The notes beneath the pieces are model-generated. The model did not search any database and was not told the origin of the DNA. It saw only the letters and a program-made list of their open reading frames with translations. A stretch of 40,792 nucleotides of DNA. Source: an uncultured Muribaculaceae bacterium. GTDB lineage: Bacteria > Bacillota_I > Bacilli_A > RF39 > UBA660. Positions 766 to 25,431 of the stretch are shown piece after piece; position 1 is the first letter of the stretch, and every line of letters begins with the position of its first letter. The position numbers were made by a program, and so were the translations under genes. The stretch spans positions 1 to 40,792 of the forward strand of contig CAYMEJ010000003.1 of assembly GCA_964389735.1 (NCBI GenBank). Reading direction: 5' to 3'.

Positions 766-2331
766 GTGGTATATGTGATACTAAGAAAACCATATGCCTT
801 TTTAATAAAACATTTTCAAAAGATAAACTTTGTATTATTGTTGCTTGCAATTTTTACTTTCATTAAGAACAGAGAGATTTATGCTTTTGTAAAAGAGTAT
901 ATTGAATTGGGTATATATAATTCTAGTGTTGATTCAATAGGTAATTATATTTCAACAATAGTATTAATTGTTTTATTTGTAATATTAATATTATCTGCTA
1001 TATTGATTATTTTATTGAAGCATAAGGATAAACCAATTATTACGTATTCTATTATTACAATAGAATATTTATTCATGCTTGTAATGTATTTTTATACAAT
1101 AAAATATTTTGGTGAATTAAGTTCAACAAATTATGATGTAGCGTCTGCTATGATAGTTAGAGATTTAATATTTATTAGTAGTTTACCTCAATATATAGTA
1201 TTTATATTATTGTTGATTAGAACACTAGGATTAGATTTAAAAAGTTTTGGTTTTAGAGAAGACAAAGAATTCTTAGAGGCAGAAGAAGATAGAGAAGAAG
1301 TTGAAGTTGCTGTTGGTTTTGATTATGATAAAGCTAAAAGAACTTTTAAACAAAAAATAAGATATTTAAAATATTTTTTCTTAGAGCATAAATTTGTAAT
1401 TAGTATTTTACTTACAATAACAGTTTTATTTAGTGCATTTAGTATATATAACTATGTTTTTGTTGAAAATAAAATATATAAAATGGGTTATAATTTTAAT
1501 AGTAATAGTTATACCTTTAAAGTAAACGCTACTTATATTACTAATAAAGATTATGCTGGTAATATTATTACTAATGAAAATACTTATTATGTCTTGGTAG
1601 ATGTAGATGTAAAAAATAATTTATCTACTGAAAGAACTTTAGATATTGAAAAGTTTTTCTTATCTACTAGTCAAAAATATTATATACCTGAAGTAAGATT
1701 TAATACTTATTTTGAGGATATGGCTAATTTATTTAAAAAAGAATCAATTAAAGGTATGAAGAGTGCAAACTATATTTTAATATTTGAAATAGATAAGCCT
1801 AAGAAAGATGAAAACTTTATTTTATCTTATCAAGATGCTACTACTAATGATACAAAGATGAAAAAGGTTAGAATTGATATTACTGATATAAGTAATTTTA
1901 AGACTAAAGGAAAAGCAAAATTAATGGAAGATTTATTAATTCCAGTAAATCCTAAAGTTACTAAGGAAATGAATGTATATGAATATCAACTATTAGATGA
2001 AGTTAAGTATACATATAAGACTTGTGAAGTTTATGATTGTTATATGGAAGAGTCTAGAATGATTGCGGGTGCTAATAAAAAGATTTTATATCTAAGAACA
2101 TATATGGGTGATGATTCCAATAGTCAATTTTTAAATTTTACTCTTAAATATGGAAAAATAAAATATAAGGTACTTGATACTTGGTATACAGGTAAATTAA
2201 TTAACAAAGCTCCAAGAAGTTATAGAGGAAATTATTTGTACTTTGATGTAAGTGGAAATGTTCAAAATGCTAGTGAAATAGAATTGTATTTTACAATTAG
2301 GCAATTCCAATATTTCTATAAATTAAAATAG
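766..2331 (+). CDS. Polytopic membrane protein with an acidic linker and a beta-rich extracytoplasmic C-terminal domain; function unknown.
   Basis: 521-aa ORF. The N-terminal ~160 aa contain several hydrophobic helices, followed by EDKEFLEAEEDREEVE, another TM segment and a Y/N/K-rich domain. The start is GTG at 766 or GTG at 775, after AGGGGTGG. Confidence 0.65.
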   Translation: MVYVILRKPYAFLIKHFQKINFVLLLLAIFTFIKNREIYAFVKEYIELGIYNSSVDSIGNYISTIVLIVLFVILILSAILIILLKHKDKPIITYSIITIEYLFMLVMYFYTIKYFGELSSTNYDVASAMIVRDLIFISSLPQYIVFILLLIRTLGLDLKSFGFREDKEFLEAEEDREEVEVAVGFDYDKAKRTFKQKIRYLKYFFLEHKFVISILLTITVLFSAFSIYNYVFVENKIYKMGYNFNSNSYTFKVNATYITNKDYAGNIITNENTYYVLVDVDVKNNLSTERTLDIEKFFLSTSQKYYIPEVRFNTYFEDMANLFKKESIKGMKSANYILIFEIDKPKKDENFILSYQDATTNDTKMKKVRIDITDISNFKTKGKAKLMEDLLIPVNPKVTKEMNVYEYQLLDEVKYTYKTCEVYDCYMEESRMIAGANKKILYLRTYMGDDSNSQFLNFTLKYGKIKYKVLDTWYTGKLINKAPRSYRGNYLYFDVSGNVQNASEIELYFTIRQFQYFYKLK

Positions 2332-2340
2332 GAGGTTAGT

Positions 2341-4185
2341 ATGAAAAAATTAAAAAATATGAGTAAAGAACAATTGAAAAAACTTTCTATGAAATTAGGA
2401 ATTATAGGTATTGTAATAATATTATTGTATATAATTTGGTTAATCTTTTTAGAGAAAACAGTTATATTTATGTCGTATGAAGAACGTTTTCAAAATAGTG
2501 TAGAAAAATACTTAGAAAGAAATGAAAATTATGTTCCTGAAAATGGCAGAATGAGAAGTTTTACTTTACAAGAGGCATATGAAAAAGGAATTTTAGATAC
2601 TTTATATGTTCCTAAAACAAAAAACATGTGTGATGTTGATAGTTGGGTAAAAGTTAAAGTAGATGAAGATGGTGAAATTAATTATTATACATATTTAAAA
2701 TGTGGAAAGTATGAATCAAAAACTGACCATACTGGACCAGTTATTACACTTAATGGTGATTCTTCAATTTTAAATCCTTTAGGTAATGAATATAAAGATT
2801 TAGGTGTAAAGAGTGTTGTTGATGATAAGGATGGTAAGATAGATACTAAGAATGTTATCATTAATACTAATAAAGTTTTGAGTAATAAAACTGGTACATA
2901 TGAAGTTACATATAAGGTTTATGATAGCTTAAGAAATGTTACTACTATTACAAGAAAGGTTACAGTAGTTGAAAAATTATCTGATAGGATAAAAAAAGAT
3001 ACAAATGGTACTAGTTTGTATGCTGGAGTTGATCTTAATAATTATGTATTATTTTCTGGAATGGTATGGCAAATATTAGGAATTAATGAAGATGGTACTA
3101 TTAAGTTGGTATTATTTGATAATGCTGTTAATATGGCATATGATGGTGGAAATTTTAATGATTCACAAATAAAAGAGTGGTTGAACAGTGTTTTTTATAA
3201 ATCATTAACAAATGCTGAAAAGTATATTGTAAAGGATAATAAATGGTGTGTTGATACAGTTAGTAGTTATGATACAGCTTCTACTGATTGTACTACTTAT
3301 AGTGAACCTTCAACTGTTGGTATGTTATCTATTGCTGATTATAAAAAAAGCTTGGTAGGAGATAAATCATATTTAATGACTAGAAATTCTTATAGATTTT
3401 TAAATAAAGTGGATACAATTAATTCATGGATAAAATATAGTTATAAGGGTAAGCCTATTCATTCTTATGATGATACTTCTTTAGTAGGAATTAGACCTGT
3501 TATTATTCTTAAAGATAATTTATTTATATTAAGTGGTGATGGAAGAACTGATACTCCATTTAAATTAAATGATTATAAGACTGGAAATGAAAATGATTTA
3601 GTAAAGGATAGAATAATTGGTGAATATGTTTATTATTCAGGATCATATTGGAGAATTACAGGAAAAGATTCAGAGGGTAATGTAAAAATGACAATGGCTG
3701 AAACATTTAGAATTGCAAAAACTTCTGAAGTATTGAATGCTAAATATGAGGATAATGTAAAGAGAATATTTGATCCTACTGAAAAAGGAAATCTTGGTTA
3801 TAAGATTAATAATGAAATAATTGATTATATTGATGATAAGTATTTAGTTTCAAAATCATGGGATTTACCATTATATAGTATGGAGAAAAAGTATTCTGAA
3901 TTAGAAAAGAAAACTTTTAAAGCAAAAATTAGTATACCAACTAGTTATGATTTATTTTCTGGTTGTAATGGAAATGATAGTTTGAGAAAAGGATCATATT
4001 GGTTACTTGATTATATGGATGATGAAGTTGATTTATTTATGATAAATGAAAGTAATGGATTAGCATTTATTGTTGATAGAGCTTTGTATGAAACTAATGG
4101 GTTAAAGTTAACAGTATATATTAAAGGAAATTCTAAGATTTCAAGTGGTATGGGTATTTTTTCAAGTCCATATTATATAAAATAG
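2341..4185 (+). CDS. N-terminally anchored surface protein with a bacterial Ig-like (DUF5011-type) domain and two repeated C-terminal modules; putative adhesin.
   Basis: RBS AGGAGG lies 6 nt upstream. There is a single N-terminal TM segment (LGIIGIVIILLYIIWLIFL). The Ig-like signature is GPVITLNGDSSI...TGTYEVTYKVYDSLRNVTTITRKVTVVE. No LPXTG-type C-terminus is present. Confidence 0.65.
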   Translation: MKKLKNMSKEQLKKLSMKLGIIGIVIILLYIIWLIFLEKTVIFMSYEERFQNSVEKYLERNENYVPENGRMRSFTLQEAYEKGILDTLYVPKTKNMCDVDSWVKVKVDEDGEINYYTYLKCGKYESKTDHTGPVITLNGDSSILNPLGNEYKDLGVKSVVDDKDGKIDTKNVIINTNKVLSNKTGTYEVTYKVYDSLRNVTTITRKVTVVEKLSDRIKKDTNGTSLYAGVDLNNYVLFSGMVWQILGINEDGTIKLVLFDNAVNMAYDGGNFNDSQIKEWLNSVFYKSLTNAEKYIVKDNKWCVDTVSSYDTASTDCTTYSEPSTVGMLSIADYKKSLVGDKSYLMTRNSYRFLNKVDTINSWIKYSYKGKPIHSYDDTSLVGIRPVIILKDNLFILSGDGRTDTPFKLNDYKTGNENDLVKDRIIGEYVYYSGSYWRITGKDSEGNVKMTMAETFRIAKTSEVLNAKYEDNVKRIFDPTEKGNLGYKINNEIIDYIDDKYLVSKSWDLPLYSMEKKYSELEKKTFKAKISIPTSYDLFSGCNGNDSLRKGSYWLLDYMDDEVDLFMINESNGLAFIVDRALYETNGLKLTVYIKGNSKISSGMGIFSSPYYIK

Positions 4186-4952: not shown

Positions 4953-7900
4953 ATGAGAAAGGTTCAAAAAAGAAATAGGAAAATATTATTTCTAACAGCA
5001 CTTTTTGTTGCAACGTTCTTCTGGTGTGACAATGTTTATGCTGATTGGTTTGGTAATAATTATATTTGTTTGGATTACAGTGTTGTTAAAGTTGATCCAA
5101 AAGCAGATAGTAAAAAAACAAAAGTTAAGGATATTCAAAATCTTACAAAACAGGATTTATATAATAGACATATTGCATATCCTGAAAGCATAGGTAAAGA
5201 GTTCGATGCTTGTATGGTACAAACAAATAATTATAAAACTTGTCAAAAGAAAAGAAGAGAACAAGAAATTTTATATGAAATAAATGTGCAATATACAGGT
5301 AGATCTTGTGTTAGACAATGGAATCCTGAAAATAATAGCTGGTTGTTTCAAACTTGTCCAACAACAGCAGATGCGAGAAAGTATGATATGAGTGTTATTA
5401 CAGATAATGATCATTTAACTTATACTTATAATGCTGCTACTAATAAATATGATATTAGTTTTCATCCTAATAAAGTTCGTGCTGATTATGCAAGTGTTAA
5501 AGGTTTAAAACTATCAATGGCTGGAAAAGTTGCAATGACAGTTGATGGTAAAACAAAAGAAATGTTTAAAACAGATGAACTTGGAAATCCTGAAAAAGTA
5601 ATACGTGAAAATATTGGTTTAGGAAATAATGGTACAATAACTGTTAGCCTTGATTTAGGAACAGATTTTTACTTTGTTTTCTATATAGCTAATGGTGGTA
5701 TCTGTGATGGAGCTAGAATTGGATATTATCAAGGAACTGTTCCTTCTAATATACCTAATCCATATAAGGATGCTTCAGTATGTACTAATTATAAAAATCT
5801 TTATAAGGGAACTGAAAATGAAGATTTAGCAAAAGAACTTGTTCCTTTATGTTATCAAGATGAAATAGATGGTACAAAGAAAACAGAAATACTTGATGAA
5901 ATAAATAAGGGTATTGCAACAGCAAATGCTGCACTTACTACTGTACAAACTAATAGTACAACAGGGTTAGATATGTCTTGTGAATTTGAACCTAACACTT
6001 ATAATCCTCTAACAAACGAAAATACTGTAAATAAAAGAAGTTTAGTTTATACTAATTTCTTAAATGTAGGTAATACAAAATATTGGAAAGCATATTGTAC
6101 AGAGAAAATGACAATTGAATATGATGAACCTAAAGCAGTTAATGCTGGTACAGGTTTTGCTTATCAAATAAAAATAACACTTGAAAGAGCTTGCGAACCG
6201 GTTCAAGTTGCACTTGTTCCATATTATCCACAATGTTCTTATACAGTTGAATGCTATGGAGGTCCTGCAAACCATAATGGTGAAGCTGGTGCTGGTCCTA
6301 GTAAAGCATTTGATACTTGTGTTAATAGTTGTGATGGTGGAAAATATACTCAAGAGTGTATTAATAAATGTAATACAGTTACAAATCAATTAAGTTCAAC
6401 TTCTAATAGTAAGGGTTGGGTTTCATTTATGAATGCAACTAAAGAAACTGTTGGAGTTTTAAGATTAGGAGTTTACAATTATAATTATGCAAATGAAGGC
6501 TTAGCTGGTATATGTAATGATGGTGGTACAAGATTACCTCGTGCTGAAGGATGCTGGGCTACTGAAAGTAATGAAGATTGTGGTGGAGATGGTTCTACAT
6601 ATTGTACTACTGCTCATGGTGTACAATTCACATATTTAGATGGATGTAATGCTAATGGTGAAGTTGGTGGAACAAAATGTATGGAAGTATATAGACAATA
6701 TCCATGTGTTCACGATGATGCACTTACAAATTATAGAAGAAGATTAAATGATTCAAGAAATGAATTAAATAATATAATAGCAATAATAAGTGATTACTCA
6801 TCAGGTGGAGATAATCATTATACAAAAGATGAAACATTTAATGCTAATGTAATAGATTCATATACTAATAAAGCAGTTTCATTCTCATCTAAAAATGATC
6901 CTAATAATAATAAATTATCTGTTAAAGCAGTTAATTCAGTAGTTAATTCAATGTCATATAATAAAACTCAAAATGGAAAGAATGAAACAGTTACATTAAA
7001 TGCTGGAAAGATTTCTGATAAGATTTTAGGTTATGCAGTTGGTGGAGTTTCTCAAAGCGAAATAGCAGTAAGTGTTAATAGATACATTGTTAAGAGAGTA
7101 GTTACTGTTGATTTCCCAATAGCATATGTACCTAGTTCAACTAATAATGATAAAGTAAAATATTCAACTACTGATCCTTCAACTAGTGGATTAAATATTT
7201 ACTATAATGGTGGAAATAAGTATTATACAAATTTATATTCTCCAGCAATTAATTCATATTATGGTTGGAGATCATATGTTGATAATAATAATCAATTAAG
7301 ATACTTTGATATTAATAGTAAATCTACTGATTCTTATACTAAAAATATTAAATATGTTATTAATAATATTGGTAGTTGGAATCAATGGGGTGGAGCAAAC
7401 AAGAAATTAGATCTTGAATGTTTCTATGGACTTATTAATAAATATTGTGTTTCATGTAATGTAAAAGATGAAATATCATTGAAACATGCTTGTAATACAA
7501 ATACAGATTTATGTACTACAGGTATTCAATACATTTTTAGACCAATTGATTTAAATGATGTTTTCCCTAATGACAGAGATCCAAGATGGAATTGGAGCAA
7601 TGCTTCTAAAATGACATTATTTAAGAATTATAATATTGATCCTACAAAATATACTTCTATGGTAGAGGAAGTAGGAAGTAGTAATAATACAATTTATAAG
7701 AATTCTAATACAGCACCTGGTGATGATGCAAATCCAGAATTAGATTATGAAATATATTTAACAAAAGGTAATATTTCAGCTATTAAGACTTATAATAAAG
7801 ATCATGAAAATTATTTGAATTATGATAATATGTCTTGTTCAAAAAATAAAGATGGTCAAATAAGTTGTAAGAGTGATTTCATTGGAAATACTTCTTATAT

Positions 7901-7967
7901 GACTTTATACCAAAGAAGAGATAATGAGTGCAATAATTCAGTTAGTGATACTGAATGTGCATATTAG
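4953..7967 (+). CDS. Large secreted cysteine-rich protein (1004 aa), function unknown; candidate adhesin or tip protein.
   Basis: RBS GGAGG. The Sec signal peptide reads MRKVQKRNRKILFLTALFVATFFWCDNVYA|DW. More than 30 Cys residues are spread over the mature protein. There is no C-terminal anchor or sorting signal. A conserved-looking C-terminal block reads GIQYIFRPIDLNDVFPNDRDPRWNW. Confidence 0.7.
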   Translation: MRKVQKRNRKILFLTALFVATFFWCDNVYADWFGNNYICLDYSVVKVDPKADSKKTKVKDIQNLTKQDLYNRHIAYPESIGKEFDACMVQTNNYKTCQKKRREQEILYEINVQYTGRSCVRQWNPENNSWLFQTCPTTADARKYDMSVITDNDHLTYTYNAATNKYDISFHPNKVRADYASVKGLKLSMAGKVAMTVDGKTKEMFKTDELGNPEKVIRENIGLGNNGTITVSLDLGTDFYFVFYIANGGICDGARIGYYQGTVPSNIPNPYKDASVCTNYKNLYKGTENEDLAKELVPLCYQDEIDGTKKTEILDEINKGIATANAALTTVQTNSTTGLDMSCEFEPNTYNPLTNENTVNKRSLVYTNFLNVGNTKYWKAYCTEKMTIEYDEPKAVNAGTGFAYQIKITLERACEPVQVALVPYYPQCSYTVECYGGPANHNGEAGAGPSKAFDTCVNSCDGGKYTQECINKCNTVTNQLSSTSNSKGWVSFMNATKETVGVLRLGVYNYNYANEGLAGICNDGGTRLPRAEGCWATESNEDCGGDGSTYCTTAHGVQFTYLDGCNANGEVGGTKCMEVYRQYPCVHDDALTNYRRRLNDSRNELNNIIAIISDYSSGGDNHYTKDETFNANVIDSYTNKAVSFSSKNDPNNNKLSVKAVNSVVNSMSYNKTQNGKNETVTLNAGKISDKILGYAVGGVSQSEIAVSVNRYIVKRVVTVDFPIAYVPSSTNNDKVKYSTTDPSTSGLNIYYNGGNKYYTNLYSPAINSYYGWRSYVDNNNQLRYFDINSKSTDSYTKNIKYVINNIGSWNQWGGANKKLDLECFYGLINKYCVSCNVKDEISLKHACNTNTDLCTTGIQYIFRPIDLNDVFPNDRDPRWNWSNASKMTLFKNYNIDPTKYTSMVEEVGSSNNTIYKNSNTAPGDDANPELDYEIYLTKGNISAIKTYNKDHENYLNYDNMSCSKNKDGQISCKSDFIGNTSYMTLYQRRDNECNNSVSDTECAY

Positions 7968-7989: not shown

Positions 7990-8415
7990 ATGAGTAAGGG
8001 AATGTTAGCAACTGGTGTAGTAATTCTTGGAATTTTTGCACTAGCTGTAGTTAATGTAATTCAAAACTATTCTTCAGGAAATGAACTGGACTACTACTTA
8101 TTAAAAGATACAACTGAGGCGGCAATGGTAGATGCCGTCGATGTTGGATTTTATAGACTTAGTGGTGGAGAATTAAGAATTGATAAAGAAAAATTTGTTG
8201 AAAGTTTTATTAGAAGATTTGCTGAAAGTGTAAATCAAGATCGTAATTATGATGTTAGATTTTATGATATAAATGAAACTCCTCCAAAGGTAAGTATTAA
8301 GATTGGATCTTCTACTAGTGTTACTTTTAGTGGTGATGATTTTGATATAAAAAATCAAATAGATGCTATACTTGAAACTAAATATCAAGAAAATAGACTT
8401 CTTGGTGAGGTTTAA
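7990..8415 (+). CDS. Small protein with an N-terminal hydrophobic segment; possible pseudopilin or minor pilin.
   Basis: 141 aa. The N-terminus MSKGMLATGVVILGIFALAVVNVIQ is pilin-like. The gene sits directly upstream of the cpaB-like gene. RBS is AAAGGTGGG. Confidence 0.35.
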   Translation: MSKGMLATGVVILGIFALAVVNVIQNYSSGNELDYYLLKDTTEAAMVDAVDVGFYRLSGGELRIDKEKFVESFIRRFAESVNQDRNYDVRFYDINETPPKVSIKIGSSTSVTFSGDDFDIKNQIDAILETKYQENRLLGEV

Positions 8416-14231: not shown

Positions 14232-14240
14232 TGATATAAT
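14232..14240 (+). promoter_or_regulatory. Extended -10 promoter element upstream of the T4SS genes.
   Basis: TGaTATAAT at 14232-14240, ~34 nt upstream of the 14274 start. RBS AAGGAGGG follows. Confidence 0.4.
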
Positions 14241-14273
14241 AAAGTATTCTATAAATATAAGGAGGGAATTAAA

Positions 14274-15115: not shown

Positions 15116-15121
15116 TATTAA

Positions 15122-17157: not shown

Positions 17158-17686
17158 TAAATATACTGAAGATTGGTTACCATTACAAGCTATTAATAAT
17201 GGTATGATTGTACTTCCAAATCAAGAAAAAGTTGCTGGAGTAAAAATTACTCCTCGTAATATATTTATACTTGATGAAGATTCACAAACTAATATTATGA
17301 TTGCATTAAAAAACTTTTATAATATGTTTGATTTTGAATTTTGGTTAATAGTTGCAGATAGACCTGTTGATATATCTGTGTATTTATCTCAATTACAACT
17401 TTTATATCAAGAACAACCTAATCCTGCAATTAGAAAATTAATAAATGAAGATATTCAAAAAGGTAATATGTTTATGAATAATAATGTAGTTGATACAGAA
17501 TATTTCATATTATTTAAAGAAAAAAATCTTGAATTGATTCAAAAGAAAATTCGTATGTTAATTACTGGTTTATCTCAAGCAGGTTTAACTGCTAGACAAA
17601 CAAGTAATGAAGATATGAGAATTATTCTTGATAATTTCTTAAATGGTGGTAAAACTACTGAGTTTGGGACGGTGATGTCTGCATGA
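17141..17686 (+). CDS. VirB4-family N-terminal domain encoded as a separate ORF.
   Basis: YTEDWLPLQAINNGMIVLPNQEKVAGVKITPRNIFILDEDSQTNIMIALKNFYNMFDFEFWLIV matches the N-terminal pattern of Gram-positive VirB4 proteins (PrgJ, TcpF, Orf16). The likely start is the ATG at 17141. The ORF ends in an ATGA overlap with the next ORF. Confidence 0.6.
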   Translation: MAQTNSKYTEDWLPLQAINNGMIVLPNQEKVAGVKITPRNIFILDEDSQTNIMIALKNFYNMFDFEFWLIVADRPVDISVYLSQLQLLYQEQPNPAIRKLINEDIQKGNMFMNNNVVDTEYFILFKEKNLELIQKKIRMLITGLSQAGLTARQTSNEDMRIILDNFLNGGKTTEFGTVMSA

Positions 17687-19470
17687 TAGATATAAAAACA
17701 CAAGTAGCTCCTAAAGGACTACAATTTAATCCAAGTGATTTCTTTATTAGTGATAAGTATGCGACTATTTTGACAGTTGTATCATATCCTAAATATATTT
17801 CACCAGGTTTTCTATCTTCACTTACTAGCATGTCTGGTATTAAGATAGTTATTAAACACATTCCTGTACCTTTTTCTACAATGTCTAAAATGTTAAATAA
17901 GCAAATTGCTGAATTAAAAGTTAGATATCAAGAAGAAAAAGATCAAACTATGAAAGAACGTATAAGACAAGATGCTGAATCTTTGGAATATTTTATTTCA
18001 ATGTTAGCAGGTTCACAAGCTAAAATATTTGATTTTCAAATGCATATTATGATTACTGCAGATACTAAAGAAGATTTGGAAATGAGAAAAATAAATGTTA
18101 AGAATTATTTGGACGCAATGCAATTAAAGGGAGTTGCTTTAAGATTTGAACAAGAAAAAGTTCTTAAATCAATAGTACCAATATTCCCTAAACAAGATAT
18201 TGAAGAAAGAATAGGAACTCCAATTCCTTCTCCAACAATTGCTGCAATGTATCCATTTATATTTGATAGTATTAAAGATCCGGGTCTTTCTACATTGCTT
18301 GGTGTAGATTTCTCAGGTGGGGTTATTTTATTTAATCAATTCTTATATCAAATTAAGAAAGAAAATAACAGAAATAATGCTAATATGATTATACTTGGTA
18401 CTTCAGGTAGTGGTAAATCTACTGCTGCTAAATTAATGATGAGAAGTAATATTCGTAATGGTAATCAAATTGTTGCAATTGACCCTGAAAATGAACTTGA
18501 AGATATGACTAAGGCTTATGGTGGTGAAACTATTGATCTTGGTAAGGGTGGAGAATATGGTATGATTAATCCACTACAAATTGTAATGGATTCTGATGAA
18601 GAAGAAATTTCTCAAGGACTTGGTTATACAATCCTTACCAGAACACTACAATTCTTAAAAGGATTTATGAAGTATTATGATCCTTCTATTACTGAAGATG
18701 TATTAACATTATTTAGTGAAGTTGTACAAGATACTTATAGAAGATTTGGTATTGATTTTAATACTGATTTTACTAAACATAAAGCAGCGGATTTTCCGAC
18801 GTTCTCTGATGTGTATGCTACTATAAAAGGTCGTTTATTATCAATGACTGATCGTACACAAGAACGTGATATAATGGAAAGACTAGAACTTAAAATTAGA
18901 CCAATTACACAAGAATTAAAATATTATTTTGATGGGCATACAACAATTGATTCAAATACAGATTTTATAGTATTTAATATAAAAGAGTTAATGAATTCTG
19001 ATGAAAATATACGTAATGCATTATTCTTCAATGTACTTAAGTATGCATGGGGATTATGTCTTGATAAATCAGTTAATACATTATTGATGGTTGATGAAGC
19101 CCATGTACTTTTAGCAGGTAATAATGCATTAGGAGCAGATTTCTTAGGACAAGTTCAAAGACGTGCTCGTAAGTATAATACTGGTTCAATTATAATAACT
19201 CAACAACCTAGTGACTTTGCTGATCCTGCTGTTATAACACAAGGTAAAGCGATATTTGATAATGCATCTTATTATTTAATAATGGGATTAAAGAAACAAG
19301 CAACTGAAGATTTATCATTATTAATAGATTTAAATGAGAATGAAAAGGAAAGTATTAAACGTTATTCACAAGGTGAAGCTCTATTTGTATGTGGAGATAG
19401 ACGTATGAGAATAAATGTTATTTTATCAAATGAAGAATTAGAATCATTTGGTAGTGGTGGAGGATTCTAG
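17683..19470 (+). CDS. virB4: VirB4-family T4SS ATPase (central and C-terminal ATPase part).
   Basis: Walker A is IILGTSGSGKSTAAK, Walker B LLMVDEAHVLL. IIITQQPSDF is present, and the N-terminal block is APKGLQFNPSDFFISDKYATILTVVSYPKYISPGFLSSL. Confidence 0.9.
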   Translation: MIDIKTQVAPKGLQFNPSDFFISDKYATILTVVSYPKYISPGFLSSLTSMSGIKIVIKHIPVPFSTMSKMLNKQIAELKVRYQEEKDQTMKERIRQDAESLEYFISMLAGSQAKIFDFQMHIMITADTKEDLEMRKINVKNYLDAMQLKGVALRFEQEKVLKSIVPIFPKQDIEERIGTPIPSPTIAAMYPFIFDSIKDPGLSTLLGVDFSGGVILFNQFLYQIKKENNRNNANMIILGTSGSGKSTAAKLMMRSNIRNGNQIVAIDPENELEDMTKAYGGETIDLGKGGEYGMINPLQIVMDSDEEEISQGLGYTILTRTLQFLKGFMKYYDPSITEDVLTLFSEVVQDTYRRFGIDFNTDFTKHKAADFPTFSDVYATIKGRLLSMTDRTQERDIMERLELKIRPITQELKYYFDGHTTIDSNTDFIVFNIKELMNSDENIRNALFFNVLKYAWGLCLDKSVNTLLMVDEAHVLLAGNNALGADFLGQVQRRARKYNTGSIIITQQPSDFADPAVITQGKAIFDNASYYLIMGLKKQATEDLSLLIDLNENEKESIKRYSQGEALFVCGDRRMRINVILSNEELESFGSGGGF

Positions 19471-19504: not shown

Positions 19505-22354
19505 ATGGCTGAAGACAAAAATGAAGCATCTAATTCAGGTCAATCTGAAAAAGATAAGACTAAAGAAAATTCGAAAAAATTAATCCAAGGAGCTGAAAAA
19601 GGTGCTGCTATGTATTTTGGTGGAGCTGCTGGTTCACAAGCACTTAATGCTGCAAAAAATTCACCTATTGGTGGTGCAATCGATAAAGTAGAAGACAAGG
19701 CTGCTGAAGGACTTTCAAAAGCAATGGACAAAAATCCTGCATTAAAACATATGGTTAATAAAGCTGGAGATAGTGGAGCACTGGATGCAGCTAATAAAGG
19801 ACTTGATGCTGCTGGAAGTATGGGTGCAGGAGGTGGAGGAGCCGCTGGAGCAGGTGGAGCTGCTGGTGGTTCTTCTTCTATGCCTTCATCTTTTGGTCCA
19901 TCATCCGAATTTGGAAAACAATCTGTATTAAATGACGGACAACAAGGTGCTTCAGGAGATGCTTCATCACAAATGATGTCTAAAATGACAGGTGGTGGAG
20001 GGGGTTCATCATCATCTTCTGGTGGAAGTGCTAGTGGTCAAGCAGGTGCTGATGCTGATGTATCAGGGACTTCATCATCTGCTGCTAATTCAATTTTTGA
20101 TTTTATAAAGAAACATAAATTTGAACTTATAGGTGCTGTTGCTGTAGCATTTATGTTTATATTAGTTATTATTGTTGTTCTTGCTATCTTTGTTGCACCT
20201 TTATCTGCTGTAATAGGTAAGATTAAGGGTTGGTTTGATGGATTTGTAGATAAATGGGATAGAGAAGCAGAGGAACAATATTATGAAACATTAAAAGAAG
20301 TTCAAGAAAAAATTAACGAACGTTATAAGGTTTGTATTGATGTTAATTTAGTTACTGCAACTTTGTTTGTTGATAGACAAAAAAATGAATATAATGTTCA
20401 AGGCGCAGAAGATGTAGCCGGTGAGGCAGAATTTGACAGAGCTTACTATAAAAAAGCAACCAAGGAAATTGAATTATTATCATTAATGCAGATAAAAAGA
20501 CAATGGAAATCTTATTCTACTTATGAAGGTGGACAGGGTGGAGCGTGTTGGCCTCCTGATAGTCCGGATGAATGTGTAAAAGGTGGTTTGGCTATAAAAG
20601 CTACTGCTGAAAATGAACATTGTGGATTTGGGCCAAGTTTTTATAATACTCTTTTCTTAGAAGGAACAGATAGTGTTTCAAAAGCAAAATTTAGAGATAG
20701 TTCTAATTTAAGATTAGTTTCTCGAAATGATGTTTCAAAAACTTTTGCTTTTACAATAGATTCTAAAATTGCAAAATCAGAAAAAAATTATGAATATTTT
20801 TTATATTTTCCTGATTATGATTGGATTGATTATAATAAGGATGGTGTTCAACAAGAGGAAGAACTTAAATGTAATCCGGTAGAACCGTATGAGGCTGCAA
20901 TAGTTCTTGCAAATAATGATATTAATGAGGCTCCTTATGAGGCTGAACTATCTATTGAAAGAGAAGAAGTATTTTGGTGGAATATATATGAAAGTTTTGT
21001 TGGAGATTATTATGCAGATTTCTTACCACCTGAAGAGGTAGATGATAAAGGTGCACCAGTAGGTAAATATGCTGAAGCTATTGAAAAGATAGTAAAAGAT
21101 GTTTATTTAACATATAAAGATATGGGACCTAGTCATTATTGTACTGAGTCTAATACATATTGTCGTACTGATACTGCTCCTGGTACAGGCGGTGGTACTG
21201 GTGGAGGTACACCTAATCCTACTAGACAAGGGTTTATTGATAGTATTTCACAATTAGCTGTTGATGAAATGTCAAGAACTGGTGTATTAGCTTCCGTTAC
21301 TATAGCTCAAGCAGTGCTTGAAAGTAGAAATGGAGCTAGTGGTTTATCTACGAAATATGCTAACTACTTTGGTATGACAGGTGGAAGTTGTACTAAAAAT
21401 GCTGATTTGAGTAGAAGTATTCTTGCTCCAGGAGAAGGTGGAAATAATTGTTCTCCTAATGCATATTGGTCTGGTACAATTGTTAGAATGTGTAACTCAT
21501 CAGGTGGAGATTGTCAATGGTATAGAGCTTATGACACTATGGAAAATTCATTTAAGGATCATTCTAGACTTTTGGCAACTGATTTATATGGTGTAGCTGG
21601 TATTACAGACTATAGAACTGTTACTGCTATGATTGGTGGTAAGTATGCTACTGATGGTAGTTATGAACAAAAATTAAATGAAATGATTGAAACTTATAAT
21701 TTAACTCAATTTGATATTGGTACTTGGGATGGTGTTGCACCAACAGTTCCAGATACTCCTCAATATACAATGTGTAATGATGTTGTTGGTGGAACTGGTG
21801 GTACTCAACCTGGTACAAGTCCTGGTTATTCAACTGGAGGAAGTACTTGTAAAGATGGTTTAGGTTCTTCATCAAGTCCATATTGGAGTTCGCTAAATAG
21901 TTTTAATAGTCCACAATGTACATGGTATGCATATGGAAGAGCAATAAAAGCATTAGTTGATTCTGGTTTGACTAAACAACAGGCAACTAAATTAATGTAT
22001 ACTGCTTTAGATAGGGCTAATTTAAATGGTGATGCTGGTAATTGGTATAATCTTAATGCATCAACTAAAACTTTTGATGCAACTACGAATGTTAACGTTC
22101 CAAGGGCTGGTTCAATTATTGTTTGGACTCAACAAGGTTATCATGGTCACGTTGCGTTTATTGAAAGTGTTAATTATAATTCTGATGGTTCTGTAAAGAG
22201 TCTTAATATTACTGAAGGTAATGTTTCATATAATGGAACAACTTTAAAATGTTATGCTAGAACTGTTGGTTTAGATTATGTAACTGAACATTATAGTTCT
22301 AAACGTAGTTCACCTTATAAATTTGCAGGATATATACATTTATTTGGTAATTAG
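19505..22354 (+). CDS. Bifunctional T4SS-associated peptidoglycan hydrolase (glucosaminidase/lysozyme-like plus CHAP), a VirB1/PrgK/TcpG analog.
   Basis: The first ~200 aa form a polar, Gly/Ala/Ser-rich region. A TM segment follows (ELIGAVAVAFMFILVIIVVLAIFVAPL). The glucosaminidase block is GFIDSISQLAV...ASVTIAQAVLESRNGASGLSTKYANYFGM. The CHAP domain carries Cys in SPQCTWYAYGR and His in GYHGHVAFIESV. Confidence 0.85.
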   Translation: MAEDKNEASNSGQSEKDKTKENSKKLIQGAEKGAAMYFGGAAGSQALNAAKNSPIGGAIDKVEDKAAEGLSKAMDKNPALKHMVNKAGDSGALDAANKGLDAAGSMGAGGGGAAGAGGAAGGSSSMPSSFGPSSEFGKQSVLNDGQQGASGDASSQMMSKMTGGGGGSSSSSGGSASGQAGADADVSGTSSSAANSIFDFIKKHKFELIGAVAVAFMFILVIIVVLAIFVAPLSAVIGKIKGWFDGFVDKWDREAEEQYYETLKEVQEKINERYKVCIDVNLVTATLFVDRQKNEYNVQGAEDVAGEAEFDRAYYKKATKEIELLSLMQIKRQWKSYSTYEGGQGGACWPPDSPDECVKGGLAIKATAENEHCGFGPSFYNTLFLEGTDSVSKAKFRDSSNLRLVSRNDVSKTFAFTIDSKIAKSEKNYEYFLYFPDYDWIDYNKDGVQQEEELKCNPVEPYEAAIVLANNDINEAPYEAELSIEREEVFWWNIYESFVGDYYADFLPPEEVDDKGAPVGKYAEAIEKIVKDVYLTYKDMGPSHYCTESNTYCRTDTAPGTGGGTGGGTPNPTRQGFIDSISQLAVDEMSRTGVLASVTIAQAVLESRNGASGLSTKYANYFGMTGGSCTKNADLSRSILAPGEGGNNCSPNAYWSGTIVRMCNSSGGDCQWYRAYDTMENSFKDHSRLLATDLYGVAGITDYRTVTAMIGGKYATDGSYEQKLNEMIETYNLTQFDIGTWDGVAPTVPDTPQYTMCNDVVGGTGGTQPGTSPGYSTGGSTCKDGLGSSSSPYWSSLNSFNSPQCTWYAYGRAIKALVDSGLTKQQATKLMYTALDRANLNGDAGNWYNLNASTKTFDATTNVNVPRAGSIIVWTQQGYHGHVAFIESVNYNSDGSVKSLNITEGNVSYNGTTLKCYARTVGLDYVTEHYSSKRSSPYKFAGYIHLFGN

Positions 22355-22364: not shown

Positions 22365-23039
22365 ATGAAGAAAAAATTATTATTTATATTACTTTTTCCA
22401 TTATTTTTAACTGGTTGTTCAACAAATTATTATATGGAAATATATAATGATAAAATAAATGAAGAATATACAATAAATTTTGGATCAGATGAAGTAGGTA
22501 ATTTAACTCCTCTTAATTATGCAAATCAAACATTATATGATTATTTTGGTAATTGCGATGATATAGGAATGAGAAAATTTAAGAATATGTCTGAAGGATA
22601 TGGAATTCAATCTTCTAATTCATATAATTATAAAGAATTTAAATCAAATTTAATAGGGATAAAGCAATGTTATAATGTAGTAGATTTTGCTTATAATACT
22701 AAATATATTGCAATTGCTACTACTAATCAATTCAAGTGTTATGAAATATTTGAAAATATGGAAAAATTAACTATTAATATTAAATCTAATCATAAAATGA
22801 TTGAAAATAATGCTGATAGTGTTAAGAATAATACTTATACTTGGAATATTAGTAAGTACAATGCAGACAATAAACCTATAAAAATTAAATTTTCTAAAGA
22901 TAAATATGTTTTTAACTATAATGGTGAATTTACAAAAAAAGTTATTTACATTGCTGTAATATCAGGTATAATATTAAGTGTTGGTTTATCAATAAGAGGT
23001 TATTTTAAACATAAAAGTAAATTAGCTAATAAAATATAA
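22365..23039 (+). CDS. Lipoprotein with an additional C-terminal TM segment and a basic tail; T4SS-associated, function unknown.
   Basis: RBS GAGGAGG is followed by the ATG at 22365. The lipobox is MKKKLLFILLFPLFLTG|C. The C-terminus reads VIYIAVISGIILSVGLSIRGYFKHKSKLANKI. Confidence 0.7.
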   Translation: MKKKLLFILLFPLFLTGCSTNYYMEIYNDKINEEYTINFGSDEVGNLTPLNYANQTLYDYFGNCDDIGMRKFKNMSEGYGIQSSNSYNYKEFKSNLIGIKQCYNVVDFAYNTKYIAIATTNQFKCYEIFENMEKLTINIKSNHKMIENNADSVKNNTYTWNISKYNADNKPIKIKFSKDKYVFNYNGEFTKKVIYIAVISGIILSVGLSIRGYFKHKSKLANKI

Positions 23040-23121: not shown

Positions 23122-25407
23122 ATGAAATTAAAATTAAGAGCAGATGCACAAGATTTATTAATATTTTTTGTTTTTGCAATATTTCTTTTATATGTTGTTG
23201 CTTTAGGAGTTCTTAATTTTCCTGAATTAGCATCATCTGGACATTTTTATGGTTTAAATCCTTTTCCTGCTTTTGAAAGTGATAAAATAGTTGCAACTTT
23301 AGTGTTTTACATAATATTCTTAGCTGCTATTATTATGAGTGTAAGTTCTTATTTCTTTGAATTTGATAAAGGTGTAGGAATTTCTACTGATAAAAAGGAT
23401 AAAGGATATAGTAGATGGGCGAAAGATAAAGAAATTAAATTTGATGAAGGAATGGCTAAGGTTGATCCTCATGCTGAAACATCAAATGCTGGTGGGGTTC
23501 CGTTAATATTAAAAAAAGATGAAGTATGGGTAGATAATAAAGAATATCATACTTTAGTAATAGGTGCTACTGGTTCTGGTAAAACACAAACTGTTATTTT
23601 ACCAACTGTTAAAATTTTAGCAAAAGCTGGAGAATCTATGATAATTACCGATCCAAAAGGTGAAATTTATGAAAAAACTGGTAATATGTTACGTGCTAAA
23701 GGTTATAATATATTATTGTTAAATTTCCGTGATCCTCAAAAAGGTAATTCTTGGAATCCGATGTCTTTGCCTTATGAATTATATAAAGCTGGTAATACTG
23801 ATAAAGCTATAGAGTTATTAGATGATTTGGCTGCTAACATTTTGTATGATGAAAGCAGTAAGAATAGTGATCCATTCTGGGAAAAAACATCAGCAGATTA
23901 TTTTTCTGGATTAGCTTTAGGTTTATTTGAGGATGCAAATCCGGATGAGATTAATATTAATAGTATTAATTTAATGTCTACTGTAGGTGAAGAAAAATTT
24001 GGTGGATCATTATTTATAAAAGAATATTTTGCTGCTAAAGATCCTAATAGTGCAGCATACATAAATGCAAATGGTACAGTAATGGCACCAACTGAAACAA
24101 AAGGTGGTATTTTATCTGTATTTAGACAAAAAATTAAATTATTTGCATCACGTGAAAATTTAAGTGAAATGTTATCTTATAGTGATATAAGTTTGGAATC
24201 AATAGGTGAACAAAAGACAGCATTATTTATTATTGTTCAAGATGAAAAGAAAACATATCATTCACTTGTTACAATACTATTAAAACAATGTTATGAAACT
24301 TTAATTGGTGTTGCTCAAAAGAATGGTGGTAAACTTCCAATAAGAACTAATTTCTTATTAGATGAGTTTGCTAATATGCCTCCTTTAAAAGATATTACTA
24401 CAATGATTACTGCAGCTCGTTCTAGAGCTATTAGATTTACTATGATTGTACAAAACTTTGCTCAATTAGACCAAGTTTATGGTAAAGAAGAATCAGAAAC
24501 TATTCGTGGTAACTGTGGTAATACAATTTATTTAATTACTACTGAATTAAAAGCATTGGAAGAGATTAGTAAGATGTGTGGTGAAGTTAAATCTAAAAAG
24601 GATGATAAAACCGCTTCAACACCACTTGTTACTGTAAGTGATCTTCAACGTATGAAACAATTTGAAACAATTATTTTAAGAATTCGTAAACAACCTTTTA
24701 AAACAAAAATGGTACCAGATTATCAAATGGATTGGGGTAAGGAGTATGAAATACCTTCTGAATATCCAGCAAGAGAAAAAAGACCTGTTCATACATTTGA
24801 TTTAAAAGAATTTGTAAAAGCACAAAAGAAAAATAAATTATTTGAAATGATGGATGAAGCAAGTAATGGAAGTAAACCTCAAGGTTCTGGTAATAGTCCA
24901 TTTCCAAGTATGATGACTTCTAATATGCCACCTAGAAATAGTCAACCTGAAAAAGCATCTAATGATTTATTTAATGTTGATGATTTAGTAAAGAAAATAG
25001 ATGCTAAAATTGCAGAGATAGAAGCTGAAGAAAAGCGTAAAAAAGAAGAGAAAACTAGTAAAGTTTCTCCAGTTATTGAAGAGAAAAAGATTGAAGAAAT
25101 TGAACCAAATGTTAAAATTGAAAAAACAACTATCAAAGATTTTGATGATACAAAAGATAATGACATTACTGATATACCAATTTCAACAAAAATTAGTGAT
25201 GAACCTAAAATGGATATTAGTCAATTGTTAGGTACAATGGAACATAGTGATCCTAATATAGATAGTAAACCAATCGAAGAGGTTGTTGAACCAAAAGAAG
25301 AAGTAAAAACAGTTGATGATAAAAAAATTATTCATGAAGAAAACATACCAGTACGTGAAATATCTGTTACTGATGATCAATTCTTTGATGATTTCTTTGA
25401 TGATTAA
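23122..25407 (+). CDS. virD4: VirD4/TraG-family type IV coupling protein with a long charged C-terminal tail.
   Basis: Two N-terminal TM helices. Walker A is LVIGATGSGKTQTVILP, followed by ITDPKGEIY. Walker B is NFLLDEFANMP. Also present are RFTMIVQNFAQL and a ~170-aa K/E/D-rich tail ending DDQFFDDFFDD. Confidence 0.9.
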   Translation: MKLKLRADAQDLLIFFVFAIFLLYVVALGVLNFPELASSGHFYGLNPFPAFESDKIVATLVFYIIFLAAIIMSVSSYFFEFDKGVGISTDKKDKGYSRWAKDKEIKFDEGMAKVDPHAETSNAGGVPLILKKDEVWVDNKEYHTLVIGATGSGKTQTVILPTVKILAKAGESMIITDPKGEIYEKTGNMLRAKGYNILLLNFRDPQKGNSWNPMSLPYELYKAGNTDKAIELLDDLAANILYDESSKNSDPFWEKTSADYFSGLALGLFEDANPDEININSINLMSTVGEEKFGGSLFIKEYFAAKDPNSAAYINANGTVMAPTETKGGILSVFRQKIKLFASRENLSEMLSYSDISLESIGEQKTALFIIVQDEKKTYHSLVTILLKQCYETLIGVAQKNGGKLPIRTNFLLDEFANMPPLKDITTMITAARSRAIRFTMIVQNFAQLDQVYGKEESETIRGNCGNTIYLITTELKALEEISKMCGEVKSKKDDKTASTPLVTVSDLQRMKQFETIILRIRKQPFKTKMVPDYQMDWGKEYEIPSEYPAREKRPVHTFDLKEFVKAQKKNKLFEMMDEASNGSKPQGSGNSPFPSMMTSNMPPRNSQPEKASNDLFNVDDLVKKIDAKIAEIEAEEKRKKEEKTSKVSPVIEEKKIEEIEPNVKIEKTTIKDFDDTKDNDITDIPISTKISDEPKMDISQLLGTMEHSDPNIDSKPIEEVVEPKEEVKTVDDKKIIHEENIPVREISVTDDQFFDDFFDD

Positions 25408-25431
25408 GAGTAGAGTTTCTACTCTTTTTTT
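25407..25431 (+). terminator. Rho-independent terminator closing the T4SS block.
   Basis: AGAGTAGA (25407-25414), a GTT loop, TCTACTCT (25418-25425), then TTTTTT. Confidence 0.7.

Follow-up and report, generated by a model that had tools for sequence, protein, structure and literature searches.

A chromosomally fixed block of Tad-like and type IV secretion genes in uncultured gut Bacilli, a possible counterpart of pLS20-type transfer systems

The stretch of DNA analysed here, referred to below as the window, is contig CAYMEJ010000003.1 over its positions 1 to 40,792. Between positions 766 and 25407 it contains a block of 21 open reading frames (ORFs), every one of them on the + strand in the ORF listing of the window and numbered g01 to g21. 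On balance, we favour the interpretation that this block encodes a chromosomally fixed contact and transfer apparatus of the pLS20 type, in which a Tad-derived motor and platform module stands alongside a monoderm type IV secretion system (T4SS). The apparatus would be composed of three parts: surface proteins together with a sortase B; a Tad-like type IV filament module with a DUF5411 protein, CpaB, an ATPase, TadB- and TadC-like proteins, a 54-amino-acid (aa) protein, a DUF4320-like protein and a TadZ-like protein; and an MPF_FATA-like T4SS with two VirB2-like proteins, VirB6, VirB3, a VirB4 in two pieces, a hydrolase, a lipoprotein and VirD4. The gene content, the homologies, the synteny, the conservation and the pattern of selection are observed directly. 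An earlier note on this DNA had proposed a Tad filament dedicated to a monoderm T4SS. A Tad-like module and a linkage to the T4SS that is not coincidental hold, whereas a canonical Flp pilin, homology to TadE and a peptidase in the locus are missing from the picture.

The Tad-like module consists of the following eight genes.

7990 to 8415, + strand: g05, DUF5411 protein with an N-terminal transmembrane (TM) helix and a globular domain (PF17424, 176.5 bits); marker gene of the module
8438 to 9280, + strand: g06, CpaB/RcpC-like SAF protein (NCBIfam TIGR03177, E 1.3e-11; Pfam RcpC, 28.5 bits with a cut-off of 28.8; SAF)
9318 to 10670, + strand: g07, secretion ATPase of the CpaF/VirB11 family with a Pro/Val/Thr-rich C-terminal tail (T2SSE, 92.5 bits)
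10680 to 11582, + strand: g08, TadB-like inner-membrane platform protein (hhalign with bona fide TadB 93.7%, E 1.9e-7, 219 columns; no Pfam match)
11583 to 12368, + strand: g09, TadC-like inner-membrane platform protein, a paralogue of g08 (hhalign with TadC 77.6%, E 1.9e-5)
12437 to 12601, + strand: g10, 54-aa pilin-like protein; its leader, MK[EA]A[TS]GELN[ML]T, is invariant, and after a hydrophobic helix comes a tail that is hypervariable (58 orthologues, one per species)
12634 to 13155, + strand: g11, weakly DUF4320-like protein of 173 aa; its N-terminus (M-R-x-x-x-G) is conserved, and it has a TM helix and a globular domain that evolves fast
13184 to 14194, + strand: g12, TadZ/CpaE-like 336-aa protein with a receiver-like N-domain and a C-domain of the MinD/ParA fold with a degenerate Walker A motif (AlphaFold2 (AF2) model, mean pLDDT 74)

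This module is regarded as Tad-like because it combines a CpaB protein, a TadB/TadC pair, a TadZ-type fold and the canonical gene order, following the criteria of Denise et al. (PMC6668835). The CpaB/RcpC-like SAF protein that had been recognised earlier is indeed encoded by g06 (TIGR03177, E 1e-11); its score of 44 bits lies under the equivalog cut-off of 71, and a homologue exists on a Priestia plasmid (E 1e-15). The family of g05 occupies the equivalent position in plasmids of Priestia and B. cytotoxicus, and weak similarity to it is seen at the position of pLS20 gene 36. Two separate platform proteins of the single-T2SSF type, corresponding to TadB and TadC, are encoded 3' of the ATPase gene. 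They were recognised by hhalign, the references being genuine TadB and TadC proteins encoded in three Tad loci of proteobacteria, and the order of the ATPase gene and the pair is that of canonical Tad loci. The TadB-like and TadC-like families are also related to each other as paralogues (96.7%, E 4.4e-10), while the cross-pairs are weak (TadB-like with TadC 12%, E 0.0024; TadC-like with TadB 29%, E 0.00058) and the negative control, TadB-like with TadZ-like, gives 0.3% and E 0.18. Furthermore, g09 has an orthologue on a Priestia plasmid (E 1e-12). With the T2SSE and T2SSF models that had been suggested for this module, the outcome is divided: the ATPase matches T2SSE, but g08 and g09 do not reach Pfam T2SSF (the Priestia orthologue obtains 24.2 bits with a cut-off of 25.2), and their relation to TadB and TadC comes from the profile-profile comparisons. 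The profile of the TadB-like family against PDB sequences returned only spurious helical-bundle matches. When the AF2 model of g08 (pLDDT 80) is searched with Foldseek, the PDB match of highest probability is the cytoplasmic domain of EpsF (prob 0.69), which is not significant.

The AF2 model of g12 matches MinD, ParA, BcsQ, FlhG and FleN at prob 1.0 in Foldseek, and it aligns over both domains with 3fkq, a two-domain protein of E. rectale (prob 0.98). We take 3fkq to be the structure that Xu et al. (2012) determined for TadZ and that Denise et al. cite as E. rectale TadZ. The TadZ-like character previously assigned to g12 is therefore a matter of its fold, but not of its profile, as no profile match to proteobacterial CpaE (hhalign 0.8%) and no PDB sequence match were obtained. 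The anatomy of the 54-aa protein g10, as read from its sequence, appears pilin-like, and in this capacity it is counted toward the Tad-like identity. In g11, the resemblance is to the DUF4320 gene of the pLS20 family (tblastn E 1e-3). The searches of Pfam and NCBIfam gave no match for the TadB- and TadC-like, the pilin-like, the 173-aa and the 336-aa proteins, nor for g20 of the T4SS.

The ATPase g07 deserves separate consideration, since on its identity depends the main rival of the Tad-like interpretation. It contains all the motifs listed for it earlier (GETGSGKTE, IEDTLEL, LLAEVRSAEA and SGHNILSTIHS). Its former designation as a TadA/CpaF ATPase stands as far as the T2SSE match (92 bits) and the CpaF/VirB11 family are concerned; judged from its sequence it is a member of that family, but membership of the TadA subfamily is not clear. 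It could be argued that g07 is the VirB11 of the T4SS and that its neighbours are accessory subunits of this system, so that there is no separate filament; the ATPase may then help VirB4 to assemble the VirB2-like proteins, or energise transfer. This reading, which we consider unlikely, draws on the NCBIfam scores of g07, where VirB11 comes first with 118 bits, ahead of the TadA-type ATPases (93), TrbB (90) and FlaI (81 bits), all below their cut-offs, and on the PDB, where HP0525-type VirB11 structures are the best matches; in the same comparison the VirB11, FlaI and CpaF chains are roughly equidistant (57-67 bits). The nearest relatives of g07 are the "CpaF/VirB11 family" proteins of a clade of Gram-positive plasmids (114-163 bits), and its distance from canonical plasmid-borne VirB11 (72-94 bits) is as great as that from canonical CpaF (76-87 bits), which takes away from the lead of VirB11. 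The genomic surroundings can likewise be read in two ways. VirB2-like genes lie directly 3' of the module, in the window as well as in pLS20, and a canonical pilin, a TadE homologue and a prepilin peptidase were not found, both in favour of the rival. Yet VirB11 systems are devoid of CpaB, of a TadB/TadC pair and of TadZ, while here all four surround the ATPase in canonical Tad order. The published annotation, in which the ATPases of pLS20 (gene 37) and pAW63 are named VirB11 (PMC8557374, PMC9673590), also agrees with the rival. Against it, the module occurs with two unrelated classes of T4SS and, in Clostridia, is reported without any T4SS (PMC9523054), which would suit an autonomous machine. 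A further feature of g07, a cytoplasmic protein, is that its residues ~340-450 (window 10340-10670) form a low-complexity tail of ~110 residues with much Pro, Val, Thr and Glu (ETPVLETPVVQSIPVVEAPVVNPTPV...), which is lacking in VirB11 and CpaF structures and lies outside the orthologue alignments.

The Tad-like module is followed by the genes of the T4SS.

14274 to 14615, + strand: g13, VirB2-like T4SS pilin with two TM helices (PF18895, 19.6 bits, below threshold); in 57/57 species
14711 to 15115, + strand: g14, second VirB2-like protein, with a signal peptide (g13 and g14 give mutual tblastn cross-matches at the same coordinates in relatives)
15122 to 16825, + strand: g15, VirB6-like polytopic membrane protein with seven TM segments (NCBIfam Mycoplasma ICE membrane protein families, E 4.5e-10 and 1.2e-5)
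16846 to 17157, + strand: g16, VirB3-like protein with two TM segments (positions 2-94 of the fused Mycoplasma VirB3/VirB4 model, E 0.037, weak); in 57/57 species
17141 to 17686, + strand: g17, N-terminal (TraC-like) domain of VirB4 as an ORF of its own (PF26593; VirB4_plasma positions 99-276, E 1e-12)
17683 to 19470, + strand: g18, VirB4 ATPase core (NF045975, 360 bits; CD1110 family, 175 bits; TraG P-loop and AAA_10 domains)
19505 to 22354, + strand: g19, membrane-anchored peptidoglycan hydrolase with glucosaminidase and CHAP domains, an analogue of VirB1 (PF01832, 79.8 bits; PF05257, 52.4 bits)
22365 to 23039, + strand: g20, lipoprotein with the lipobox LFLTGC, a C-terminal TM segment and a basic tail; no family match
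23122 to 25407, + strand: g21, VirD4-type coupling protein (NF045973, CD1115 family, 306.9 bits, above the cut-off of 250 bits; PF02534, 179.7 bits)

With VirB4, VirD4, VirB6- and VirB3-like membrane subunits and a cell-wall hydrolase, this set has the composition of a monoderm MPF_FATA-like T4SS. It confirms the components that had been proposed (two VirB2-like proteins, VirB6, VirB3, VirB4, hydrolase, lipoprotein and VirD4), with the refinement that VirB4 is split; the motifs GTSGSGKST and MVDEAH of VirB4 and GATGSGKTQ and LLDEFANMP of VirD4 are all present. VirB3, the TraC-like domain and the VirB4 core (16846-19470) are encoded by three overlapping ORFs that are colinear with a single fused protein of Mycoplasma integrative and conjugative elements (ICEs), Mbov_0397, g18 aligning with positions 295-893 of the fused VirB3/VirB4 protein. 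Because this split is conserved across species, it is not an artefact of frameshifting. No family match to a VirB8-like subunit of the NTF2 fold was obtained in Pfam or NCBIfam for g20 or any other ORF of the block. The counterparts of g14 are enlarged to 322-449 aa in relatives, and these enlarged forms carry PF18895, weakly. As a whole, the stretch from VirB2a to virB3 measures between 1.7 and 5.1 kb, depending on the species, with VirB2-domain proteins of 322-449 aa and VirB6 proteins of 567-715 aa, and this hypervariable surface region is reminiscent of the VirB2 arrays in Patescibacteria.

The distribution of the two modules was followed in a scan anchored on VirB4, with one genome per species, the TadB-like alignment being too divergent for a scan of genome contigs. 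About 540 matching stretches were found in species-representative genomes, and the statements made here about the lineage rest on 80 loci taken from these. Their VirB4 proteins are 79-91% identical to that of the window, and all 80 originate from uncultured gut or rumen metagenome-assembled genomes (MAGs) labelled "Bacilli bacterium", "Tenericutes", Ca. Onthousia or Ca. Scybalousia; the sources are human, mouse, rabbit, chicken and ruminant guts. Two of the loci are on closed circular chromosomes of 1.31 and 1.52 Mb; the accessions of the closed genomes are OZ006970.1 and OZ006981.1. Linkage was counted in the 57 species with at least 9.9 kb of sequence upstream of virB4. The genes for the TadB-like, TadC-like, pilin-like, 173-aa and TadZ-like proteins are co-directional with the T4SS and adjacent to it in 53 of them, none of the 57 lacks VirB2a, VirB6, VirB3 or the TraC-like gene, and where the downstream sequence is long enough (61 species) VirD4 follows in 60. 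According to the earlier note, the idea of a common apparatus would fail if relatives carried the two modules at unlinked loci; what is found is adjacency in nearly all of these species and recurrence in plasmid conjugation loci. It is this adjacency, together with the recurrence of the arrangement in pLS20-type, Priestia and B. cereus-group plasmids, that makes the linkage of the Tad-like module and the T4SS more than a coincidence. The four exceptional species (loci L048, L058, L070 and L073) have kept the rhodanese flank, and a P-type ATPase, DUF2099 and an amine oxidase are encoded directly 5' of the VirB2-like genes; the Tad-like and adhesin modules are in these species either elsewhere in the genome or lost. 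Since the T4SS is retained there after housekeeping genes, the two modules are separable. As to variation within the block, relatives of ~80% identity have one or two extra genes without a Pfam match between the TadC-like and the pilin-like gene, one of 461 aa on the opposite strand (L016:11726-13111, -) and in some loci one of 444 aa (L018, L020:11843-13177). The gap between the two genes exceeds 1 kb in 3 of 55 species-representative loci.

The link with plasmids was made through the ATPase and the Priestia orthologues, because direct comparisons found nothing: megablast of the block against plasmids was negative, and tblastn of the DUF5411 and TadC-like proteins of the window against plasmids gave no match at database-level E-values. 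An exhaustive search of representatives yielded mostly fragments and only ~10 full-length distant relatives. On the Priestia koreensis plasmid, the order is an Ig-like 993-aa protein, DUF5411, SAF, a ParA-like protein, the ATPase, a T2SSF-family protein, its paralogue and DUF4320, with VirD4 upstream. In pBatNRS213, a member of the pLS20 family, the Tie adhesin is followed by small proteins, a "VirB11-like" ATPase, two membrane proteins and DUF4320, and then by two 47-aa proteins, a 78-aa protein, VirD4, VirB6, two small ORFs and VirB4. Plasmid pCh3_53 of B. cytotoxicus combines the full module with a Tcp-type T4SS. Set beside these three plasmids, by annotation and by pairwise or profile comparison, the window reveals the same composite order, from an adhesin and an anchored protein through the ATPase, two membrane proteins, a DUF4320-like protein, a small TM protein and VirB2-like proteins to the T4SS core. 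The TadC-like family is present on 367 plasmids, 359 of them from Bacillus.

The pLS20 family (pLS20 and pBatNRS213; genes 34-52) and the window have in common the gene order from the Tie adhesin through VirB4, an ATPase of 34% identity, a weakly DUF5411-like small anchored protein, DUF4320, 47-aa single-TM proteins and a VirB2-like protein (PF18895). After the latter, the order in the pLS20 family is VirD4, VirB6, a 103-aa ORF, a 192-aa ORF and VirB4. Unlike the window, pLS20 is a plasmid with a relaxase, surface exclusion, Rap-Phr/Rco regulation and a VirB8-like gene, its VirD4 precedes VirB6, and no CpaB or TadZ-like gene is annotated in it, whereas the window has both of these as well as a sortase. 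The fullest match to the Tad-like module of the window is found in plasmids of the pHT73/pE81-53 type, such as pCh3_53, and in the Priestia plasmid. As in the window, they have a large secreted protein, DUF5411, a CpaB-like SAF protein, the ATPase, two platform proteins and DUF4320, in addition to a ParA-like ATPase with a lysine-less P-loop. In contrast to the window, pCh3_53 encodes a Tcp-type T4SS (TcpD, TcpE and two large ATPases) and a replication-relaxation protein. The TadZ-like gene precedes the ATPase gene in pCh3_53 and in canonical Tad loci, while in the window it follows the pilin-like genes. pLS20 itself is a proven conjugative plasmid, and its Tie protein is surface-located and required for transfer (PMC11730352). 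Two observations on plasmids may be added. The 78-aa two-TM protein of pBatNRS213 (14977-15213), at the position of pLS20 gene 45, matches PF18895 with 28.8 bits (cut-off 26.6 bits) and TrbC/VirB2 weakly; in the paper on the pLS20 family, the operons are said to encode no VirB2 homologue. Plasmid pXO1 of B. anthracis (~181 kb) has a partial, unannotated TadC-like match (62% coverage) and a gene of the CpaF/VirB11 family, which suggests a remnant of the Tad-like module on a non-conjugative virulence plasmid.

In the window, the locus is not part of a mobile element. The 10 kb upstream contain housekeeping genes (ATP_bind_3 family, NUDIX, a sigma factor, PRC, peptidase U32, SpoU and thioredoxin), and the downstream flank encodes rhodanese, DedA, RmuC, TrpRS, PBP5, RluB, YunB and YutD. 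Domain scans revealed no relaxase, integrase or replication genes in the block or 10 kb on either side; there is no sign of insertion at an att site, as no tRNA gene was found and att-like border repeats are at chance level. The encoded proteins recur at ~80% identity on thousands of metagenomic contigs. Relatives that are ~20% diverged use the same site, and among them is a 1.44-Mb contig with the same gene order, 3' of the thioredoxin gene. The locus is a vertically inherited chromosomal operon at a broadly conserved site, in a low-GC lineage with small genomes, and is not on a conjugative element; the reading as an ICE was rejected in view of the housekeeping flanks, the lack of a tRNA gene and att repeats, and the conserved site. 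Classical self-transfer by the window copy is unlikely, because no relaxase is within reach and the locus does not move. Of the types of machine considered earlier, a contact-dependent one that is not classical conjugation fits the window copy better than the conjugation reading does. At the left border (window 186-699), a gene for a DUF1016_N/YhcG PDDEXK nuclease is split into two overlapping ORFs (80 and 96 aa), the first of which is shortened with respect to a 157-aa version in a near-identical contig (L002). This pair stands between the thioredoxin gene and the block in this sublineage only; in relatives of ~80% identity the block is directly 3' of the thioredoxin gene. Further downstream (window 28730-40000) are YunB, a YutD-like protein, a PBP5-type carboxypeptidase and a second glucosaminidase-like ORF (31416-32408). 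The organisms of this lineage are walled and probably spore-forming. The labels "Tenericutes" and "Mycoplasma" of many related MAGs are nominal and misleading, because peptidoglycan and sporulation genes are present.

The ORFs of the block are intact in nearly all species. Ratios of nonsynonymous to synonymous substitution rates (dN/dS) were obtained by NG86 and, with dS near 1, are best read relative to one another: they amount to 0.12-0.26 for VirB4, TadB, TraC-like, TadC, ATPase, VirD4 and the pilin-like gene, to 0.21 and 0.50 for the housekeeping neighbours RmuC and DedA, and to 0.47-0.85 for VirB6, VirB2b, the hydrolase, g20 and the 173-aa protein (0.47 for the last). The pattern agrees with a working machine whose core is conserved and whose exposed surfaces change quickly. 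It also bears on the possibility that the block is a decaying, non-functional remnant of an integrated conjugative element, its adjacency being merely historical. Such decay might be seen in the lack of a relaxase or integrase in the block and its 10-kb flanks, in the split nuclease gene at the left border, and in the TadB-like and hydrolase genes that are split in one assembly of low coverage. With ORFs intact in essentially all 80 species, VirB4 79-91% identical, dN/dS of the core genes as low as that of the housekeeping neighbours and a conserved chromosomal site, the remnant reading is strongly disfavoured and, on ORF intactness and dN/dS, it was rejected as highly improbable. The assembly in question, ERZ4240422 (~6x coverage), is near-identical to the window; its TadB-like gene is split into 58 + 257 aa (L002:11363-12251) and its hydrolase gene into 258 + 723 aa (L013:6354-9265), which could be strain-level pseudogenisation or an assembly error.

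The layout of the block corresponds exactly, on re-listing of the ORFs, to the 21 co-directional genes and the gap sizes given in the earlier note. In this very AT-rich window (GC 18-36%), the successive intergenic gaps from g01 to g21 measure 9, 7, 16, 22, 22, 37, 9, 0, 68, 32, 28, 79, 95, 6, 20, -44, -4, 34, -32 and 82 bp. Exactly four of them are in the range of 68-95 bp (68, 79, 95 and 82 bp), and the others are of 0-37 bp or are overlaps. The following elements were located.

12378 to 12406, + strand: promoter-like site with an extended -10 (TTGAAT-17-TG-TATAAT), in the 68-bp gap 5' of the 54-aa gene; consensus match only
14221 to 14250, + strand: promoter-like site (TTGACA-18-TATTCT), in the 79-bp junction of the Tad-like module and the T4SS; consensus match only
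25406 to 25426, + strand: intrinsic terminator-like stem-loop followed by a T run, directly 3' of virD4 at the end of the block

The earlier placement of regulatory elements in the four long gaps is thus partly supported: two gaps have promoter-like sites and the block ends in a terminator-like structure, but promoter-like sites are not enriched overall (111 found, compared with 121 +/- 11 in shuffles). The junction between the TadC-like and the 54-aa gene has kept a gap of 66-131 bp in 52 of 55 species. The promoter-like site at the 79-bp junction could also indicate that two independent machines are merely co-located and co-transcribed, the Tad-like module producing adhesive pili for gut colonisation and the T4SS acting separately. 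Tad pili do serve gut colonisation in Bifidobacterium. The existence of the T4SS without an adjacent module in 4 of 57 species and the stand-alone version reported from Clostridia (PMC9523054) point in the same direction. Independence of this kind would leave unexplained that the two are adjacent in 53 of the 57 species in a single orientation, and that the module came to be embedded independently in conjugation operons of no fewer than three groups of plasmids, which have two classes of T4SS, for which chance is insufficient; we therefore regard it as rather improbable. For the same two reasons, conserved adjacency and repeated independent embedding in conjugation operons with two classes of T4SS, a functional coupling of the machines is proposed.

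The first four genes of the block encode surface proteins and a sortase.

775 to 2331, + strand: g01, polytopic membrane protein with ~5 TM segments (TM scan) and an extracellular DUF4352-like domain of the Ig type (Pfam DUF4352, 21 bits, below threshold)
2341 to 4185, + strand: g02, surface protein with a bacterial surface Ig-like domain (PF16403, 52.7 bits), anchored at its N-terminus, where it has one TM segment
4193 to 4936, + strand: g03, class B-type sortase (C. perfringens SrtB 5b23, E 4.7e-14; TIGR03064, 67 bits, below cut-off)
4953 to 7967, + strand: g04, secreted Cys-rich surface protein of 1,004 aa; no Pfam match

The start of g01 is at 766 (GTG) or 775, and the public assemblies record a form of 518 aa. 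The designation of these genes as an adhesin/sortase module is half sustained. The sortase is of class B and has its catalytic residues, His (YGHN), Cys (LITCTR) and Arg (RVDAR), but none of the proteins of the block has a sorting signal, that is, a motif with a hydrophobic segment and a basic tail at the C-terminus. An internal NPLTN at residues 351-355 of g04 (window 5998-6012) resembles the NPQTN recognised by sortase B of S. aureus; it is not C-terminal, and no hydrophobic segment and basic tail come after the motif. The slot of g04 is that of the large surface or "conjugal transfer" protein in the plasmid modules and of Tie in pLS20. Two short colinear motifs are common to g04 and the Priestia and B. 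cytotoxicus proteins, which are themselves mutually homologous (E 4e-93).

Other known systems resemble the block in part. Canonical Tad/Flp loci (Caulobacter, Aggregatibacter, rhizobia) have, as the window does, CpaB, an ATPase of the same family, the order of the TadB/TadC pair and a TadZ-type protein of the MinD fold whose Walker A is not typical (PMC6668835). The window differs from them in having no secretin or CpaD, as expected for a monoderm, no TadV in the locus and no Flp motif; homology to TadE, TadF or TadG is lacking as well, with DUF5411, DUF4320-like and large surface proteins in their stead. The "secretion-related system" of Clostridia (Roseburia, Ruminococcus, Eubacterium) shares its core with the window, namely a CpaF ATPase and a GspF-like membrane protein together with DUF5411 and a large protein of the surface or invasion-domain type; this DUF5411-CpaF-PilC/GspF system was predicted by Miller et al. 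as a stand-alone operon of 8-9 genes, with no link to a T4SS reported (PMC9523054), so that the two machines can exist apart. The chromosomal T4SSs of Patescibacteria are MPF_FATA-related and chromosome-fixed in small genomes, mostly without a relaxase and with several variable VirB2-like (PF18895) genes, and they are considered to have been co-opted for a life that depends on a host or partner (PMC12102498). We see in these relaxase-poor and VirB2-rich systems the closest conceptual parallel to the window, by analogy. They differ in belonging to another phylum; the link drawn for those organisms is with type IV pili and not with a Tad-like module sharing the operon (PMC12102498), and the window retains VirD4 and a large cell-wall hydrolase. 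The thin pilus of IncI R64, TP114 and PAPI-1 share with the window the concept of a type IV filament beside a T4SS that aids mating-pair formation, especially in liquid (PMC12857230, PMC9045228). Unlike the window, these are type IVb pili with PilS/PilV pilins on mobile elements of Gram-negative hosts, and there is no homology of module architecture. The T4SSs of Mycoplasma ICEs (Mbov_0396/0397, MMCAP2_0566) provide the best-scoring families for VirB4 (360 bits) and VirB6 of the window, below cut-offs, with VirB3 and VirB4 fused in one protein where the window has three ORFs. We know of no Tad-like module in Mycoplasma ICEs.

Whether this architecture had already been catalogued had been left undecided. 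The gene set has been, in pLS20 and pAW63 under the name of VirB11 and in the Clostridia operon (PMC9523054), but the reading as a Tad filament is not in those papers, and no Tad or type IV pilus reading of pLS20, pXO16 or other Gram-positive T4SSs was found in the open-access literature. What is new is thus the lineage-wide chromosomal fixation and the Tad-like reading, not the gene set.

Several findings weigh against the interpretation favoured here. The locus falls short of the Tad family in three respects, namely the pilin motif, TadE and the peptidase. The 54-aa protein, formerly called Flp-like, has no G/XXXXEY motif of Flp and no match to a pilin model, Flp_Fap not appearing even at E<=10. 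The 173-aa protein cannot keep the name TadE-like either, as the g11/DUF4320 family gives hhalign 0.1% with the TadE family and no Pfam TadE match. No prepilin peptidase (TadV/CpaA, peptidase A24) is encoded in the block or 10 kb on either side, although such peptidases can be shared between systems (PMC6668835). To these may be added that the TadZ-like assignment of g12 is backed by the fold and not by profiles, that the ATPase is equally near to VirB11 and CpaF, that the T4SS does without an adjacent module in the four species mentioned and that the module is described as standing alone in Clostridia (PMC9523054). Furthermore, no substrate, relaxase or effector was identified in the block or its 10-kb flanks, and a filament in members of the lineage is what we infer.

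With these reservations, a mode of action can be imagined. The TadZ-like protein would set the position of the machine, and the ATPase, docked on the TadB/TadC-like platform, would pull the pilin-like subunits from the membrane, to be built into a short filament or pseudopilus through the wall. CpaB would act as the envelope-spanning partner, with DUF5411 and the 173-aa protein as putative minor subunits. The filament would present or export the large surface protein and in this way capture a partner cell, after which the hydrolase would open the wall and the T4SS channel, fed by VirD4, would move a substrate, either DNA-protein or protein, between the cells. The coupling of the two machines, the direction of transfer and the nature of the substrate are conjectural steps of this scheme; the window copy could serve DNA donation, DNA uptake or the transfer of proteins. 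A more far-reaching version, which we put forward tentatively and consider doubtful, is that pLS20-type systems and their chromosomally fixed descendant build a true Tad-derived filament, from subunits of 47-54 aa and with the "VirB11" as its motor, for partner capture and the display of the large adhesin, and that the relaxase-less copy of this lineage has been co-opted for obligate contact-dependent exchange of DNA or protein, as proposed for Patescibacteria.

According to reviews and recent primary papers, Gram-positive T4SSs have neither VirB11 nor a pilus or anything similar (PMC12857230, PMC11730352). In pLS20-type systems, what is called VirB11 is part of a module with hallmarks of Tad, namely CpaB, a TadB/TadC pair and a TadZ-type protein, and some of the transfer systems considered to be pilus-less may therefore build a type IV filament. 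If this is true, Gram-positive bacteria would have a conjugative pilus that belongs to the type IV filaments. The question bears on how Gram-positive systems find and hold their recipients, especially in liquid, where pLS20 mates efficiently, and the result is a concrete hypothesis that is genetically testable in B. subtilis. For the lineage itself, a fixed chromosomal apparatus under purifying selection points to a contact-dependent lifestyle trait in common, unstudied members of the gut microbiota of animals and humans, and would constitute a Bacillota parallel to the T4SSs of Patescibacteria.

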